This document shows, piece after piece, positions 1,369-43,687 of a DNA stretch of 44,882 nt. The DNA lies in IMG/VR virus record IMGVR_UViG_2872678658_000005, positions 1-44,882 of that record; one strand, written 5' to 3'. Each line of letters starts with the position of its first letter. Positions within the stretch are counted from its first letter, which is position 1. Under the pieces are notes generated by a model that worked only from the letters and a program-made list of their open reading frames with translations, did no database searches and was not told where the DNA came from. The position numbers and the translations under genes are program-made. The stretch comes from a virus (lineage: Duplodnaviria; Heunggongvirae; Uroviricota; Caudoviricetes).

Positions 1369-1444
1369 GCCGATATAGCTCAGTTGGTAGAGCAGCGCAT
1401 TCGTAATGCGAAGGTCGTAGGTTCGACTCCTATTATCGGCACCA
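1369..1444 (+). tRNA. thrW: tRNA-Thr (anticodon CGU), phage attachment target
   Basis: 76-nt sequence GCCGATATAGCTCAGTTGGTAGAGCAGCGCATTCGTAATGCG...TATCGGCACCA with a 7-bp acceptor stem and CCA end; CGT anticodon in the anticodon loop; sits immediately downstream of proA as in E. coli. Confidence 0.9.
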
Positions 1445-1461
1445 TTTAAATCAATAAGTTA
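1399..1461 (+). repeat. attL core (3' 46 nt of thrW plus about 17 nt downstream)
   Basis: Exact 63-bp direct repeat of the segment at about 43625-43687 (ATTCGTAATGCGAAGGTCGTAGGTTCGACTCCTATTATCGGCACCATTTAAATCAATAAGTTA). Confidence 0.8.
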
Positions 1462-2622
1462 CACATCATTAGTACCTTCCTTATTTTTTGACTGGGACAA
1501 ATTTGGGACCGATGGGTTCAGGATCGAGTCTATTTGCCGTGCGTGTTCGGTAAGGTGATTAGGTGCAAGGTGAGCATATCGACGAACCATTTCGATAGAC
1601 TCCCAGCCTCCCATTTCCTGTAACACTGACAACGGGACTCCGGCTTGAACCAGCCAACTTGCCCAGGTGTGTCTCAAGTCGTGAAATCTGAAATCATCAA
1701 TACCAGCCCGTCTCAGCGCCGCTTTCCAGGCTGTGTTTGCGTCATACCGCATCTTCCTTACTGTTGGCGCTTTCGTTCCGTCTGGTTTGGTACAGCTTTC
1801 CTTGTACACAAATACCCAACGGTGATGATTCCCGATTTGTTTTTTCAAAACGCGACATGCAGTATCATTCAGCGCAACGCCAATTGCGCGGTTTGATTTA
1901 CTCTCTTCCGGGTTTATCCATGCCACCCGGCGCTGCATGTCTATTTGTTGCCATTCAAGGTTGATGATGTTCGAGCGTCTTAAGCCTGTTGCCAGTGCAA
2001 ATTCAACAACAGACTTTAATGGCTCCGGACATTCATCAATCAGCCTTTGTGCTTCATGGGGCTCCAGCCAGCGGATCCGTTTATTCTTTGGTTGAGGCAC
2101 TTTAATAATTGGTGCCTTATCCAGCATTTTCCATTCACGCTCTGCGGCTCTTAGTAGGGCCTTTATAAATGAAAGATGCGTAGCCTTCGTTGCAACGGAC
2201 GCTGGTTTTGGCGTGTATTCTGGAACAGGTTTCCCTTTTTTTCTGCATGCTTCTGCCCTGAGTCTCCAGTTTTCCTCATGACGCCGGTTCGTCATTTTCT
2301 GCATTGCTGAATAAATTTTTGATTCAGTAATGTCTCTTAGTTGCATTCCTGCGAAATGTTGAAGCCAGAATCCGATCCGGCTTTTGTCATCGTCCAGTGA
2401 TTTTTTATGTGCTTTCTCTTCAAGCCACCTGACACACGCTTCCTCGAACGTTATATCAGGTATTTCACCAAGTTTGCTGACCCGCCATGCTTCAGCCTTT
2501 AGCTTGTCATGGAGTTCTGTCGCCTGCCTTTTGTCCTTTGTTCCAAGAGACTGTTTAAATCTTTTACCGTTCGGCAATGTGAAACTGGCGTACCATATTT
2601 CACCTCTGCGGAAGAGTGACAT
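1459..2622 (-). CDS. int: tyrosine integrase (P22-type, 387 aa)
   Basis: ORF translation [24 protein letters not shown]... with C-terminal HDLRHTWAS...RYAHLAP catalytic region; adjacent to attL at the tRNA-Thr site that P22-like integrases use. Confidence 0.9.
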
Positions 2623-2849
2623 TTTCTTTCCTCTGTTATGCCATCACCCGCGCTCACCTGGACAGTATGCAGCGGAGACTGAAGAGCCGCAATGCAGGCT
2701 TGTCGTGTTGTGAGGTAAGGAGATTTATTCTTAGTGGGATCTTTGCGTGTTGCCTGAAGACGCCCTGTGCGTATCCAGTTAATGGCAGTCGGTCTGGATA
2801 TCTTGAGAAAATGACAGGCCTCATCGAGTGTGAGGCTGTATGGCTCCAT
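2499..2849 (-). CDS. xis: excisionase (116 aa)
   Basis: Internal ATG of ORF 2499..2933 giving [31 protein letters not shown] (Xis-type HTH); start overlaps the stop of the upstream gene (TAATG); 3' end overlaps the int start as in P22-like int-xis pairs. Confidence 0.8.
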
Positions 2850-3154
2850 TATTTCACCTCTTGCTGTGACATTGTTGAAAAATGGATACCAGCTCGTTGC
2901 TGCCAGACGATCCAACCGAGAGTCATATCCCATGCCATGTATTCGTTATTGCCGTTTTTTGCTCTCCGACGATCTACTAAGTCACCGAAACGCTTTTCCA
3001 TGAATAATTCATAAGCTTCGCGTTCATCTGGTTCTACTTCCAGAGATAGGAGTGCGATTTCATAAGCACGGCGCTCAATATCGTCTCGCACGTCAAGGCT
3101 GCTGATACGCTCTTTAATTTCTTTAATCAGTTCTTTGTCGGTAAAAGTGGTCAT
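2849..3154 (-). CDS. hypothetical early protein (YfdT-like, 101 aa)
   Basis: ORF with start/stop overlaps to both neighbours (TAATG coupling); size and position match the last gene of the CPS-53 yfdPQRST cluster. Confidence 0.6.
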   Translation of the reverse strand: MTTFTDKELIKEIKERISSLDVRDDIERRAYEIALLSLEVEPDEREAYELFMEKRFGDLVDRRRAKNGNNEYMAWDMTLGWIVWQQRAGIHFSTMSQQEVK

Positions 3155-3516
3155 TATGCTCCAGCCTCCGGTGCTTTTGGCATTACTGCCCAGTGAGTGA
3201 TATTGACGTTTTCAAGGTCCCCGACCTGAAATGTCCACTGCCATTCTCCGGTTTCTTTTTGTCCCCAGGTGTACCAGAGAGAACGCCAACCAATTAGCCA
3301 GCCTTCTCCGTTAGCATCGAATAACAAAACACTTTCATTTGCTGGTGGCAGTTCAGTTGACACTGGTATTACTTTGTTTTCCTGTGCTGCACATTTAGCT
3401 TCAAGCGCATCGAATTTACGCACCAGGTATTCAGCATCTGTTTCATTTACTTTCAGATCTCGCGGTACACATCTCCCACGAAGAAACCCTTCCATTTCGA
3501 AAACATTCATGCGCAT
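3154..3516 (-). CDS. DUF551 protein (YfdS-like, 120 aa)
   Basis: Translation MRMNVFEMEGFLRGRCVPRDL...WLIGWRSLWYTWGQKETGEWQW, typical of prophage DUF551 proteins. Confidence 0.7.
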   Translation of the reverse strand: MRMNVFEMEGFLRGRCVPRDLKVNETDAEYLVRKFDALEAKCAAQENKVIPVSTELPPANESVLLFDANGEGWLIGWRSLWYTWGQKETGEWQWTFQVGDLENVNITHWAVMPKAPEAGA

Positions 3517-4043
3517 TTGCGTAACTCCGATAACTCGTTAAAGCGTTCCATAAACATCCCGTAGGCATGGCCCGGTGCCAGTGGAATCACGTTGAACATC
3601 TCTGTTGCCGGGATACCTTCCAGTACAGGCCAGAAAGAGCCATCATCAAGCCCGAGATCGCGGCGTTCGGTTGCCAGCATGATGAGATCGGCATATTTCA
3701 CGGGCGTACTCATAACTGGGGGTAATCCGTATTTCTCACGGATTACGGAGTCTATTTTTTCTTCCATTTGTTTATAGTCAGGAAGAAGGCGTTTCAGTGG
3801 TGCGGGAATGTCCTGGCAATACGCTTCTGTTGCATCATGCATTAACGCTTCAAAAGCAAATTTCTGCGGCACCAGCTGGCTGCAAAGAACCGCATGTTGG
3901 GCGACGCTGTAGAAGTGCGAAAGATGACCGGCAAAGCGACAGATATTTGAAAGGGAAACCGCGATATCGTTAATATCGATGTCGTCTTTATTTATCCTGT
4001 CATAATAAAAATGCTTCCCGGAAAAAGTTTTAATAAATGACAT
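3507..4043 (-). CDS. HD-domain phosphohydrolase (YfdR-like, 178 aa)
   Basis: Start taken at MSFIKTF (GGAG 6 nt upstream); H...HD metal-binding motif (SHFYSVAQHAV...LMHDATEAY). Confidence 0.75.
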   Translation of the reverse strand: MSFIKTFSGKHFYYDRINKDDIDINDIAVSLSNICRFAGHLSHFYSVAQHAVLCSQLVPQKFAFEALMHDATEAYCQDIPAPLKRLLPDYKQMEEKIDSVIREKYGLPPVMSTPVKYADLIMLATERRDLGLDDGSFWPVLEGIPATEMFNVIPLAPGHAYGMFMERFNELSELRKCA

Positions 4044-4170
4044 TTTGTTCTCCACGTATATGCGCTGCACCGCGCTGAATTCTGGTAAAAAGAATCCCTC
4101 ACCATCCGGCGATTATTGAGTAAATTACGTTTCCATAAATGCCCCCGCAGGGGCATTTGCAGTAATGAAA

Positions 4171-4995
4171 TCAGGCGGTGAAAGTACCAATAAAGGTTTC
4201 TACTTTGCTGTCCTTGAATTTCTCAACAAGCAGATCACGAAATTCGTTAGCCATTTCTTCCTGCACCGCCTCCAGCTGAATAATGCGCAGAACCAGTACC
4301 GGACGATCGCCAGTGATAATGCTGAGGCGTAATTTAAACGGACGTTCTTTCAGACCTTCAAACGGAATGCATTTAAATTCAAATGCCACTGGCATAATGT
4401 CTTTGGTCTTCGCTTCGACAGACTCCATCAGGGAGCGTTTGCCGCTGAAGTCATTATCTTCAAAATCAGCGGTCTGGTTTGCTTCAATCGTGATTTTACG
4501 GACCGCCGCAGCCGCTTTTGTTGCCTGAATGGTGTCACCATTAGCATCAAAGCCCACAAGGTAGTCGGCCCAGTCTTCAATCCATTCTGCCAGTGATTTC
4601 TGGGAGTTACGCTCGCCATTAACAGACAACAGAGCAGAGAACGGTGCTGTCTTTTTCAGTTTGAGAGTGGCGGTGTTATCTGCGTGACCTGGTTCATCAA
4701 TAGTACCCAGGTTAAGCACACTGACGGCACGCATATTATCAGCATCGATAAAGCAGCGGGTGCCTTCATCTGCAAGATCTTTAGAATAACGGGTAAAGTC
4801 ATCGATGCTGGCAGTGGAAAGCGCACCACGGAAACGGAAGCGATTTAAATTAAATTTTTCCAGATCATGAATGCGGAAATTCTCAGGCAATGCCACAGCA
4901 TCGGCACCAATCTTACTGATAATTTCATTAACACCCTGAGCAGAAATAAGGGCATGGATTTGATTAATTGCGGTTGCGTCTAAGTTCTGAGACAT
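4171..4995 (-). CDS. DUF2303 protein (YfdQ-like, 274 aa)
   Basis: Translation [28 protein letters not shown]...; GAGGA Shine-Dalgarno upstream of the ATG. Confidence 0.75.
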
Positions 4996-5060
4996 AATAA
5001 GTCCTCACTATATAAAGATATTCAGTGATGAGATAAATAATCAGTTAATTAAGAACGATA

Positions 5061-5423
5061 TTAATGACCTGCTGCGCGGAGTTTTCCGTCAGGTTCACCG
5101 GCAAGAGTCAGTAATTGTCCCTGGTCTTCCTGCAGAATAGTCAGGCGACCACCGCGATTGACATACATCGGCGTTTCGGTGGTGTCTTCTTCGGAAATTT
5201 TCCCGCGGTTAGTCGGGCGAACATATGAGAGTTTGTGTTTGATTTTCACACGGTTCTCATCAAACGGTTCGATTTCCAGGTTGAGCGAGACCTTACCTTT
5301 GGTTTTCGTGTTCATCACACCGGAAGCGACTTCACTGAGAACTGCGCCGATTTTGGTTTCAAATACGCCGCCGTCCAGCTCCCCGATAAATGCCTGCACA
5401 TCAGTACTGCGTTCGCTAGCCAT
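5061..5423 (-). CDS. hypothetical early protein (YfdP-like, about 120 aa)
   Basis: Start placed at MASERSTDVQAFIGELDGG (GGGGAG upstream); the longer 197-aa reading has a low-complexity, non-protein-like N-terminus. Confidence 0.55.
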   Translation of the reverse strand: MASERSTDVQAFIGELDGGVFETKIGAVLSEVASGVMNTKTKGKVSLNLEIEPFDENRVKIKHKLSYVRPTNRGKISEEDTTETPMYVNRGGRLTILQEDQGQLLTLAGEPDGKLRAAGH

Positions 5424-6031
5424 TTTGCTGCTCCCCATCATATCGACCCTGCAAGGTCGGTTGGTTTCTCCACAAAACAGAGAAGAACACCTGCGGTGAC
5501 TGCCGCCCGGATGGATTGGGTTATGAGCCCGTCGTCCGGTGATGCTCTTCTCTGTTTTGTAAAAAGAGCGGTACCAGCCGGAAGCAAGGGTACAAACTGG
5601 TACCGCCAAAGCAGTGGCTGTTGTGGTGGGGTTGTCACTCAGGCGTATGGTCAACCTGACAATCCGGTGTCCTCAACGGGGAAAGAGTAACCCCGCCATA
5701 CTTACCGCCGCGCCATTTCGCGGATTACCACAACGCTGAGAGCACTTAGCCAGTTACGGCACCACACTTTGTCGCGGCTCCATAAATGCCCTCATCGTTG
5801 CACCCTGGTCTCTTCCCAGGCGTCAAACCGAATCGCCACGCTGGTTAGGCGTCTTATCAGCATCATCATTGACTTGCACATTCCGGCTACCTGGTTTGTT
5901 TGCCCGAGCAAGGAGTGGATTGTCCCCTTTAACGTCCCCAGACCGCTAACGACGCATGTGCCATACGCCGTGTTACAACCAAATTTTGTTAGTACCTTGT
6001 TTGTTTGTCTGGAAAGAAAGATAAAATGAAG

Positions 6032-6070
6032 TTGCGCATTATGCAAGTGTTTTTGTTGCGAGATATGCAA
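6032..6070. promoter_or_regulatory. putative OL-like operator pair (TTGCG-N5-xGCAA)
   Basis: Two 15-bp sites, TTGCGCATTATGCAA and TTGCGAGATATGCAA, each with inverted TTGC/GCAA half-sites, downstream of cI; a third copy lies in the cI-cro intergenic region. Confidence 0.35.
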
Positions 6071-6079
6071 TTTAAAGGG

Positions 6080-6105
6080 TAATGAAAAGCCACCTTTGGG
6101 TGGCT
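6080..6105 (-). terminator. intrinsic terminator after cI
   Basis: 7-bp stem AGCCACC/GGTGGCT with TTTG loop; on the minus strand it is followed by TTTTCATT, 20 nt after the cI stop. Confidence 0.5.
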
Positions 6106-6125: not shown

Positions 6126-6818
6126 TTAATTGTGTCGCTTAAGGGTTTGTGACTGGCTGATTAAGACCTTTCCAAAGACCATAAACCGGTGTTCATTTTC
6201 GCTGGTAATTCCCCATTCACGGTAAATCTGGTTATCAGAAATCACCAGTAGTTTGTCAGGTATCATTTGCAGTCGTTTGACATAAATTTTATCATCAAAA
6301 CCAAAGACATAGATACCATCTCCATCAAACTGATTGATACTGACATCAACGAAGATGAGATCTCCTGGCTCAATGGTTGGACACATACTGTCCCCACGAA
6401 CGTTGATAACTTTAATGTGATTGGCTGGCCGTCCGCCAAACATCGATACAGCATTATCAGTTCTGTATTCAATGGCATGAATCACATCAATGACATCACC
6501 GCCCTGGATAAGGCCATTTCCCGCACTGGCACTGACATCCAGCATTTCAATACGGAATACATCCTTCACCTGCGCAACATCCTCACTAATACTGTTTTTA
6601 CATACAGTATTACTTTTGAAGTCTGAGGTAAAGAGATCAGCAATATCAACACCTAAGCTCCTGGCAATATTACTCAGGGCTTGTTCAGTGAATTGTTTCT
6701 GCTTACCTGTTTCCAGGCGTGAGATATTCGCCGCATCCACTCCTATTGCTTCAGCGAGATCGGCGATTTTCATGTTCTTCGCCTGGCGAAGTTGTCTGAC
6801 TCGGTTTCCTATGTTCAT
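6126..6818 (-). CDS. CI-like repressor (HTH plus S24 LexA-like peptidase domain, 230 aa)
   Basis: N-terminal XRE-type HTH (KIADLAEAIGVDAANISRLETGK); C-terminal domain with the GDSM serine motif and a downstream lysine typical of autocleaving repressors; divergent from cro. Confidence 0.85.
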   Translation of the reverse strand: MNIGNRVRQLRQAKNMKIADLAEAIGVDAANISRLETGKQKQFTEQALSNIARSLGVDIADLFTSDFKSNTVCKNSISEDVAQVKDVFRIEMLDVSASAGNGLIQGGDVIDVIHAIEYRTDNAVSMFGGRPANHIKVINVRGDSMCPTIEPGDLIFVDVSINQFDGDGIYVFGFDDKIYVKRLQMIPDKLLVISDNQIYREWGITSENEHRFMVFGKVLISQSQTLKRHN

Positions 6819-6838: not shown

Positions 6839-6900
6839 TTGCGCGTTAAGCAAATCAACTTGCGCAAAATATTTGCGTGAAATAATATGCTCATCACGCA
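6839..6900. promoter_or_regulatory. OR / PRM-PR region
   Basis: 97-bp divergent intergenic region with operator-like TTGCGCGTTAAGCAA, palindromic TTGCGCAA, and a candidate PR (-35 TTGCGC, 17-bp spacer, -10 TAATAT) ahead of the cro GGAGG RBS. Confidence 0.4.
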
Positions 6901-7176: not shown

Positions 7177-7720
7177 TCATCACTGGAAAGTGGAAAAACA
7201 GCCTGAGTGGTACGTGAAAGCTGTCAGAAAAACTATCGCGGCGTTGCCGGGGGGTTACGCTGAAGCTGCTGAGTGGCTGGATGTAACAGAGAACGCTTTA
7301 TTCAACCGCCTTCGTGCAGATGGCGATCAGATTTTCCCGCTGGGATGGGCAATGATTTTACAGCGTGCTGCTGGCACTCACTACATTGCGGATGCTGTCG
7401 CACAGTCTGCTGGTGGGGTGTTTGTATCGCTTCCTGAAATTGAGGAAGTAGAGAACGCAGATATAAACCAGCGCCTGCTGGAAGTCATCGAACAGATCGG
7501 GAGTTACTCAAAGCAGATTCGTTCGGCAATCGAAGATGGGGTAGTGGAGCCACACGAGCAGACAGCAATTAATGATGAATTGTATCTGTCAATTTCGAAG
7601 CTCCAGGAGCATGCGGCACTGGTCTACAAAATTTTCTGCGCTCCAGAAAAGAGTGACGCCCGCGAGTGTGCAGCTCCGGGCGTCGTGGCGTTTTGTGTCT
7701 GTGGAGAAACTAACGCATGA
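7169..7720 (+). CDS. CII-like / YdaT-family regulatory protein (183 aa)
   Basis: GTG start 8 nt after a strong AGGAGG; occupies the cII position after cro; family assignment is from recalled similarity, not a search. Confidence 0.55.
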   Translation: MGNHHWKVEKQPEWYVKAVRKTIAALPGGYAEAAEWLDVTENALFNRLRADGDQIFPLGWAMILQRAAGTHYIADAVAQSAGGVFVSLPEIEEVENADINQRLLEVIEQIGSYSKQIRSAIEDGVVEPHEQTAINDELYLSISKLQEHAALVYKIFCAPEKSDARECAAPGVVAFCVCGETNA

Positions 7721-8322
7721 ACAGTTTAACGGCAAATAACCGTTTGTCGCAACAGCTGGTGGTCAGTGTCGCTGCACACCTGTTGTTACGGCATGAATGC
7801 AGATTACCAAATCACCTGGCTGTAAGTAACCACAGAGAACTTTACCTGACTGTGGGGGGCGAGTTGTGCAGGAACTTAACCGCTGGTTTCGTGACGGAAG
7901 AGGACTTTATGTTCATGTTATTCGTTGGGAGCCAGAAACACAGCGCGTTATCTATCTTCGCAAAGACTACCCGCATGAGTGCTTTAGTCCTTTGTGGAAA
8001 TTCAGGCGTGATTTTGTTGAGTGTGAAGGACCACCAGCACATTGATTCTGCCATTCCGGGACGTTACACTGTTCAGGCACCTTATAAAGCGGGTGCCGGG
8101 CGTGGAAACCCGGAATTCACCAAAGCGCACAACCGCGCTCTTGCGGTTTTTTTGTGTCATGAGCAGCATTACGCCCAAATTATGGTGGGGCGTGCAGGGC
8201 CAACTTCGGTTGGGCCGGGTTCTTTGGTGACCGGTATTTCCACCCCTGTACGTCTCACCACCAATAAGGTCGTGGAAAGCCTTGGTGGTGAGTTATTAAA
8301 AATCACCAAAGAGGCTGCCATC
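7717..8322 (+). other. ambiguous 600-bp segment: open in frame with the downstream Rha gene, but contains terminator-like and hairpin structures
   Basis: ATG at 7717 overlaps the stop of the CII-like gene (ATGA) and the frame stays open for about 200 codons into Rha; the translation is not recognisable and a hairpin plus T-run lies inside at about 8131-8153. Confidence 0.25.
8131..8153 (+). terminator. candidate intrinsic terminator (tR1-like)
   Basis: AACCGC-GCTCTT-GCGGTT hairpin followed by TTTTTTT. Confidence 0.4.
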
Positions 8323-8868
8323 ATGGCTACGATCCCAACCCTCACTCAACCTGAAATTGCCATCGTTGATGGTCAGGCTGTTACTTCATCCCTGGCTGTT
8401 GCCAACTTCTTCTCCAAACGTCATGACGATGTACTGAAAAAGATCCGCACGCTTGAATGTTCCGCATCATTCACTGCCCGCAATTTTTCGGTGAGTGATT
8501 ACACCGATTGCACAGGCCGCAAACTACCTTGCTATCAAATAACCCGCGACGGCTTTGCGTTTCTTGCTATGGGTTTCACGGGTAAACGTGCTGCCCAGTT
8601 CAAAGAGGCATACATCAATGCCTTTAACCAGATGGAGAAACAGCTTTCAAAGCCCGCTGTACCGAGCGACGTTGCACATAACGCCAGCGTTCTCTGTTCC
8701 TACATTTCATCAATTCATCAGGTCTGGCTGCAGCAGCTTTATCCTATGTTGGCAAAAGCCGAATCTCCGCTGGCTGTTAGCTTATATGACTATATTAATG
8801 ATGCTTCGGCGCTGGCCTGCCTCATAAATTTGTCGCTGAACCCTTCAGAGGTAAGGGGGCGCAAATGA
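8323..8868 (+). CDS. Rha-family phage regulatory protein (181 aa)
   Basis: Internal ATG giving MATIPTLTQPEIAIVDGQAVTSSLAVANFFSKRHDDVLKKIR...ITRDGFAFLAMGFTGKRAAQFKEAYINAF, the canonical N-terminal pRha domain; AAGAGG upstream. Confidence 0.75.
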   Translation: MATIPTLTQPEIAIVDGQAVTSSLAVANFFSKRHDDVLKKIRTLECSASFTARNFSVSDYTDCTGRKLPCYQITRDGFAFLAMGFTGKRAAQFKEAYINAFNQMEKQLSKPAVPSDVAHNASVLCSYISSIHQVWLQQLYPMLAKAESPLAVSLYDYINDASALACLINLSLNPSEVRGRK

Positions 8869-43624: not shown

Positions 43625-43687
43625 ATTCGTAATGCGAAGGTCGTAGGTTCGACTCCTATTATCGGCACCATTTAAATCAATAAGTTA
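43625..43687 (+). repeat. attR core (partial thrW 3' copy)
   Basis: Second copy of the 63-bp repeat; the tRNA 5' half is absent, so the intact thrW is the attL copy. Confidence 0.8.

Follow-up and report, generated by a model that had tools for sequence, protein, structure and literature searches.

The yfdPQRST genes of prophage CPS-53 (KplE1) in Escherichia coli K-12 were isolated by Noguchi and Katayama as a multicopy suppressor of over-initiation in an hda mutant (PMC4776307). Extra copies inhibit initiation in the wild type and in several regulatory mutants, and the minimal set for inhibiting initiation at oriC is multicopy yfdQ and yfdR with either yfdS or yfdT; K-12 YfdP is dispensable for this inhibition, and YfdQ is required (PMC4776307). 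Binding of purified YfdR to DnaA depends on Phe46 of domain I, YfdR is a moderate competitor of DiaA and DnaB, and replication from oriC in vitro is inhibited by extracts that contain the proteins (PMC4776307). YfdR is also a structural homologue of the nucleotidase YfbR, with a much lower affinity for nucleotides, and its 5'-nucleotidase activity is weak, as cited in the same paper (PMC4776307). Its authors proposed that the proteins once helped a phage against host replication and pointed to the homologues in phage SfV (PMC4776307), and a 2025 survey of lambdoid phages found the yfdR/yfdQ/yfdP trio to be common in early-left operons (PMC12315714). Here we compare with these systems a group of minus-strand genes, and the non-coding leader that precedes it, at and beyond positions 2499-5423 of IMG/VR virus record IMGVR_UViG_2872678658_000005 (Caudoviricetes; positions 1 to 44,882 of the record, the whole stretch of 44,882 nucleotides being called the window below).

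We give a probability of roughly 60% to the reading of this locus as the early-left operon of a complete, SfV-like prophage at thrW, with interference in host chromosome replication as the activity best supported. The cluster is already in the literature for SfV and CPS-53, and the operon itself adds little to it. What the window offers is an intact, inducible-looking prophage copy, which would let the targeting of DnaA by YfdQRST be tested in real phage growth, the first such test.

Identity and organization of the yfdPQRST operon

The minus strand, read leftward from the immunity region, carries cI, yfdP, yfdQ, yfdR, yfdS, yfdT, xis and int. All five yfd open reading frames (ORFs) have ATG starts and Shine-Dalgarno-like sequences. 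From yfdP onwards, the genes are:

5061-5423, minus strand: yfdP, ORF of 120 amino acids
4171-4995, minus strand: yfdQ, 274 amino acids, DUF2303
3507-4043, minus strand: yfdR, 178 amino acids, HD-domain 5'-deoxynucleotidase-like protein (HD/YfbR-like)
3154-3516, minus strand: yfdS, 120 amino acids, DUF551, its start overlapping the end of yfdR (ATGCGCATGA)
2849-3154, minus strand: yfdT, 101 amino acids, TAATG overlap with yfdS
2499-2849, minus strand: xis, excisionase of 116 amino acids (HTH_17; PHROG excisionase), TAATG overlap with yfdT
1459-2622, minus strand: int, tyrosine integrase of 387 amino acids, adjoining attL in tRNA-Thr (thrW)

The 2925 bases of 2499-5423 are 99.6% identical to the DNA of phage SfV (orf28-orf32, xis and the start of int) and 99.3% identical to that of SfIV, and bases 298-2925 of the same region match yfdT-yfdP of a K-12-derived chromosome at 96.7% identity. 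The encoded proteins are 95-99% identical to those of K-12 (YfdP 119/120, YfdQ 270/274, YfdR 172/178, YfdS 115/120 and YfdT 96/101 residues) and 98-100% identical to those of SfV, with YfdP (orf32 of SfV), YfdQ and YfdS being the same in both phages. The gene lengths, the gaps (65 nucleotides between yfdP and yfdQ and 127 between yfdQ and yfdR, neither with an overlap) and the overlaps (10 and 1 nucleotides) are common to the window and to the K-12 and SfV loci. As order, lengths and junctions are the same and the sequences nearly identical, the five genes are, by sequence comparison, the known yfdPQRST cluster of CPS-53 and SfV and not merely like it. Of 5426 complete E. coli genomes, 3875 contain matches to this cluster.

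Three of the five junctions within 2499-5423 overlap, and so do xis and int, by 124 nucleotides. The yfdS/yfdT and yfdT/xis junctions are TAATG, with an overlap of a single nucleotide each, and the yfdR/yfdS junction is ATGCGCATGA, which gives an overlap of 10 nucleotides with the annotated start or a 4-nucleotide ATGA overlap with the second Met. Every downstream gene has its own GGAG or GAGG 6-10 nucleotides before its ATG, so that independent initiation is possible; translational coupling at the three junctions is plausible from this arrangement but not required by it. Bacteria and phages commonly have such stop/start overlaps, and a mechanical census of ORFs of at least 70 amino acids counted 24 overlaps of 1 or 4 nucleotides in the window, which makes the three in this region normal for this prophage. 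The yfdQ-yfdR spacer contains one further element:

4137-4158, minus strand: hairpin AAAUGCCCC-UGCG-GGGGCAUUU, a perfect 9-base-pair GC-rich stem with no U-tract

This hairpin may be an RNA stability or processing element. The spacer around it is 127 nucleotides long in K-12 and SfV as well.

Upstream of the cluster, the following control features were found:

6126-6818, minus strand: cI, with a helix-turn-helix and an S24 peptidase domain
6084-6105: cI terminator, just right of the predicted PL operators
6018-6070, minus strand: predicted promoter PL, with -35 TTGCAT at 6041-6046, a 17-nucleotide spacer and -10 TATCTT at 6018-6023
6032-6046 and 6056-6070: operator-like 15-mers TTGC-N7-GCAA, the first overlapping predicted PL
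6839-6853: third operator-like 15-mer, in the cI-cro intergenic region
5561-5606, minus strand: intrinsic terminator, a 10-base-pair GC-rich stem (GCGGUACCAG/CUGGUACCGC) followed by UCUUUUU, with a fold of -22.4 kcal/mol
5470-5562, minus strand: long hairpin with a near-perfect stem of ~22 base pairs (-56.3 kcal/mol), placed between the terminator U-tract, which it directly follows, and the ribosome-binding site of yfdP

The promoter-like site and the 15-mers are predicted to be PL with its operators. Between predicted PL and yfdP lie ~600 non-coding bases, and no N-like gene was seen there, as no ORF between the two has a family match. The homology with SfV begins exactly at the 5561-5606 terminator and continues near-identical into yfdP, with the long hairpin kept too, and upstream of the terminator SfV has a different PL and orf33. 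This start of the homology indicates that the terminator and the hairpin belong to the conserved yfd module. Because both lie before yfdP, transcription that starts at PL has to get past them to reach yfdPQRST-xis-int, and the pair may function as a double terminator or an RNase III site that controls these genes.

Most of the preliminary description of this region, which had been made without alignments, stands. It called the genes YfdPQRST-like, and the alignment with CPS-53 (96.7% of DNA and 95-99% of protein) is stronger than that claim; the early-left position that it assigned to them agrees with a predicted PL and two operator-like sites adjoining cI and with genes that run into xis-int. 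It also had the minus-strand yfd genes running into xis and int, and all the ORFs were found in that order. On two points it was right in part. The three overlaps that it described as TAATG-type exist, with a literal TAATG at two of them and ATGCGCATGA at the third; the five yfd ORFs that it placed in 2499-5423 are there, in a range that also takes in xis and holds six genes.

Proposed activity and alternative explanations

Of the other products of the cluster, YfdQ matches PF10065 (DUF2303) in Pfam over residues 7-272 (E 8e-92), and 606 homologues of it were found. The match of YfdS to PF04448 (DUF551) is marginal (22.2 bits against a cut-off of 22) and covers the C-terminal half of the protein (residues 50-117). 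YfdP and YfdT have no Pfam match, and YfdP, YfdQ, YfdS and YfdT all fall in PHROGs families without an assigned function. YfdS and YfdT can replace each other in K-12, but they have no significant similarity (E 0.73). A structure entitled 'YfdQ Protein' (PDB 9o7m), for which the literature search turned up no publication, contains 36 chains of a 274-amino-acid homologue of YfdQ (~40% identity, E 4e-57), and hints that DUF2303 proteins may form a very large assembly.

In the model that we favor, loss of cI repression would allow transcription from PL, and the transcript would cross the 600-nucleotide non-coding leader before YfdP, YfdQ, YfdR, YfdS, YfdT, Xis and Int are made. YfdR would bind domain I of DnaA at the Phe46 surface used by DiaA and DnaB, and YfdR and YfdQ, together with YfdS or YfdT, would lower initiation at oriC; in a live phage, the effect would be to tilt replication resources in the phage's favor. 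The overlaps from yfdR to xis probably hold YfdR, YfdS, YfdT and Xis in a fixed proportion, and the terminator and the long hairpin before yfdP probably limit these potentially harmful proteins, as well as Xis and Int, until read-through. That the proteins of the window inhibit initiation through DnaA is inferred from their 95-99% identity to those of K-12.

Several points weigh against this model. Deletion of yfdQRST gave no phenotype, and the authors of that work allow for an over-expression artefact (PMC4776307). The effect on DnaA was seen with multicopy expression only, none of it in a replicating phage, and the YfdR of the window differs from that of K-12 at six positions, with a possible bearing on DnaA binding. 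PL, the terminator and translational coupling are predictions. The structural models add little: that of YfdQ (predicted local distance difference test, pLDDT, 77.5) had no meaningful match in a PDB fold library that lacks 9o7m, with weak generic ones at most, and the fold search with the YfdP model, itself weak (pLDDT 66.9), matched nothing.

YfdR could also be taken at its family name. It matches PHROG 318, 'deoxyribonucleoside 5' monophosphate phosphatase' (E 1e-109), its RefSeq orthologue is named 5'-deoxynucleotidase, and its HD motif is conserved, with AQH and MHDATE aligning with the motifs of PDB 2gz4 (His ... His-Asp, metal-binding). These matches, like those to YfbR-like/HD families in Pfam and NCBIfam, would suit an operon whose main role is manipulation of the nucleotide pool, with YfdR as a deoxynucleoside 5'-monophosphate phosphatase, the other proteins as accessories and DnaA binding as incidental. 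The early Dmp enzyme of phage T5 is a deoxynucleoside 5'-monophosphate phosphatase and offers an analogue. However, the Pfam match (PF12917, YfbR-like) scores 25.4 bits, just under the curated cut-off of 25.9, the NCBIfam match is far under its own (21.7 against 122), and a simple phosphatase does not explain the need for YfdQ and for YfdS or YfdT, so that we regard such a role as unlikely. Less probable again is a service to the lysogen and not to lytic growth, in the form of tolerance to hydrogen peroxide, acid or methyl methanesulfonate. Deletions of yfdQ and yfdS in K-12 are reported to be sensitive to hydrogen peroxide, and that of yfdQ to methyl methanesulfonate (cited in PMC4776307), and the cluster is kept in the 3875 of 5426 complete E. 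coli genomes mentioned above, often in degraded prophages. Yet these effects are weak, and the prophage in which they were seen is cryptic, with its upstream control region deleted; moreover, with a repressor-controlled promoter and a terminator upstream, both predicted, expression in a stable lysogen would not be expected.

The preliminary description had given the functions of the genes as unknown, which is out of date for YfdR and in part for YfdQ, YfdS and YfdT in view of the K-12 results on DnaA and oriC (PMC4776307), and had guessed at host takeover or anti-defence, as in other early-left clusters. Host takeover agrees with the published proposal of replication inhibition. As for anti-defence, nothing seen here points to defence or counter-defence, the PADLOC library not having been searched. 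A counter-defence or recombination function would fit the position of the cluster, at which recombination and anti-RecBCD genes are found in other lambdoid phages, and the lack of a recognizable exo, bet or gam between PL and xis here, and the 36-chain YfdQ homologue makes a large oligomer possible. Nevertheless, we find such a function very doubtful: the yfdR/yfdQ/yfdP trio is also carried by phages that possess a complete recombination module apart from it (PMC12315714), and the fold searches with YfdP and YfdQ gave no similarity to recombinases or to known anti-defence proteins. On the same two grounds, we discarded the idea that YfdP or YfdQ is a hidden recombinase.

A structured RNA in the leader

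The leader RNA is the part of the locus most worth following. It is large, strongly covarying, very widespread in phages of Enterobacterales and absent from Rfam, and it stands where a processive antiterminator would sit. The leader as a whole folds far better than shuffled sequence (z -4.3), and it contains two conserved non-coding elements upstream of the terminator:

5781-5990, minus strand: structured RNA of ~190 nucleotides, six helices including two pseudoknots, between predicted PL and the terminator
5612-5734, minus strand: module B, a conserved non-coding leader module with 85-90% identity to unrelated phages

Pairing in the RNA was counted over its six named helices in an alignment of 82 sequences at less than 90% identity. 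Pairs form in 97.7% of the cells, compared with 25-48% when the partners are slid, and 16 of the 31 pairs have changed on both sides, a number that does not exceed 8 with slid partners. The observed score was reached in none of 500 shuffles. Many G-U pairs would become A-C mismatches on the other strand, which identifies the folded strand as the one transcribed with the operon, and indels among the homologues that are not multiples of three exclude a coding function. RNAalifold proposed a long-range helix between the loop of the first hairpin and UGUGC; the local hairpin has a G-C to A-U covariation of its own, so we treated the long-range helix as a pseudoknot. A covariance model of the element (R1) found a single copy in the window, at 5781-5990 (151 bits, E 1e-46).

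No relevant Rfam 15 family matched the leader RNA when 261 nucleotides were searched at E values up to 10. A literature search with sequence strings of the RNA returned unrelated primers only, and one on the tRNA genes of Shiga-toxin (Stx) phages found nothing. We consider it highly probable that this is a real, undescribed family of structured RNA.

Module B is shared with Evi, PPompW, PhiR42_1 and an Actinobacillus phage. ARAGORN found no tRNA in it; on its plus strand, a 7-base-pair stem like a tRNA acceptor stem ending in CCA was noticed by eye.

Distribution and genomic contexts of the leader RNA

Part of the leader matches non-coding DNA in very different phages. The RNA lies between tRNA-Ile(CAU) and the helicase gene ban in P1 and P7 (at 2995-3210 in P7; R1 itself gave no copy in the first 50 kb of P7, nor in the SfV or K-12 loci), just before tRNA-Arg(UCU) in the Uetakeviruses, and also in Stx, cdtI and mEp460-type lambdoid phages. 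Its occurrence in lambdoid contigs as well as in P7 indicates that it moves between phage operons as a module. Among the matches listed, two exact anchors were each found in more than 119 IMG/VR contigs, for more than 240 viral contigs overall. Of 5426 E. coli genomes, 1834 carry the element, always without annotation, and 554 of its places lie on plasmids. It also occurs in 24 species-representative genomes, 22 of them Enterobacterales and two being metagenome-assembled contigs labelled Bacillota.

Contexts were counted for 198 distinct copies. Within 1.5 kb downstream, yfdP is found in 31 copies and yfdQ in 30; tRNA-Arg(UCU) follows at ~146 nucleotides in 31 copies, and a tRNA(CAU) stands just upstream in 18. 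None of the 198 has a nearby tRNA on the opposite strand. A terminator with a perfect stem lies within 500 nucleotides in 107 copies. Promoters right upstream are weakly enriched, as 28% of 187 contexts score at least 8/12 compared with 16% in a control region. In some lambdoid IMG/VR contigs, the RNA is followed by three tRNA genes with the anticodons CAU, UCG and UCU, a trio that we take to be the ileZ-argN-argO set of Stx phages.

Two roles can be suggested for this RNA. It could be a cis-acting antiterminator, put-like but unrelated to put, that would carry transcription from PL through 5561-5606 into yfdPQRST-xis-int without an N protein, the copies beside tRNA genes in P1 and the Uetakeviruses acting likewise; we offer this tentatively and think it unlikely. 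At least as likely is a free-standing non-coding RNA that moves together with rare-codon tRNA genes. Either way, knowing what the RNA does might uncover an RNA-based mode of early-transcription control not described before, or add a new phage non-coding RNA associated with rare-codon tRNAs. By analogy with putL and putR, a second copy was looked for in the window with R1, and none was found. We also considered whether orf33 of SfV, which occupies the slot of the RNA, is an N-like protein, and rejected this for its lack of an arginine-rich motif.

Prophage boundaries and other features of the window

The start of the window and the two ends of the prophage are marked by the following features:

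1-1254: proA, at the window start
1369-1444: tRNA-Thr thrW
1399-1461, plus strand: attL, a direct repeat of at least 60 base pairs that covers the 3' part of thrW
43625-43687: attR, the partner repeat of attL

The two att sites bound a prophage of ~42.3 kb, which, with both present, appears complete from its sequence.

In the rightward early region, Rfam models matched IsrK (67 bits) and the C4 antisense RNA (83.6 bits) at 8077-8153 and 8178-8265 on the plus strand. Both stand before the part of a long ORF (7717-8868, plus strand) that encodes Ash and Rha domains. The arrangement resembles a P1-type immI antirepressor module, located here among the rightward early genes of a lambdoid prophage.

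Comparison with known systems

The yfdPQRST cluster of CPS-53 in E. coli K-12 has the same five genes as the window, with the same order, lengths, gaps and overlaps. The two loci differ at both ends. The control region upstream of yfdP is deleted in CPS-53, whereas predicted PL and the leader are kept here, and the K-12 cluster is followed by torI, whereas the cluster in the window is followed by the xis-int pair, in an intact prophage with both att sites.

SfV shares with this prophage the thrW integration module and the terminator and long hairpin before orf32. In contrast, the immunity region and the distal leader of SfV, and of SfIV, are unlike those of this prophage, and the place taken here by the structured RNA and module B is occupied in SfV by orf33 (99 amino acids, not arginine-rich).

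With a lambda-type PL operon, the locus has in common its leftward direction, its start beside the repressor gene, its operator-like repeats and its end in xis-int. It departs from that type in having no N and no exo, bet, gam or kil, and in a first stretch of 600 nucleotides that is non-coding.

The closest parallel for the leader RNA is the put RNA of HK022, which is ~70 nucleotides long, with two stem-loops, and is present in two copies, putL and putR (PMC9378689). Each is carried by a lambdoid phage that lacks N, at a position that would be just downstream of PL, with a terminator beyond it. The comparison is by description and not by sequence, and it separates the two: the RNA described here has ~190 nucleotides, six helices, two pseudoknots and one copy in the window, so that it is not a member of the put family, and, unlike put, it is also found beside the tRNA genes of P1 and the Uetakeviruses.

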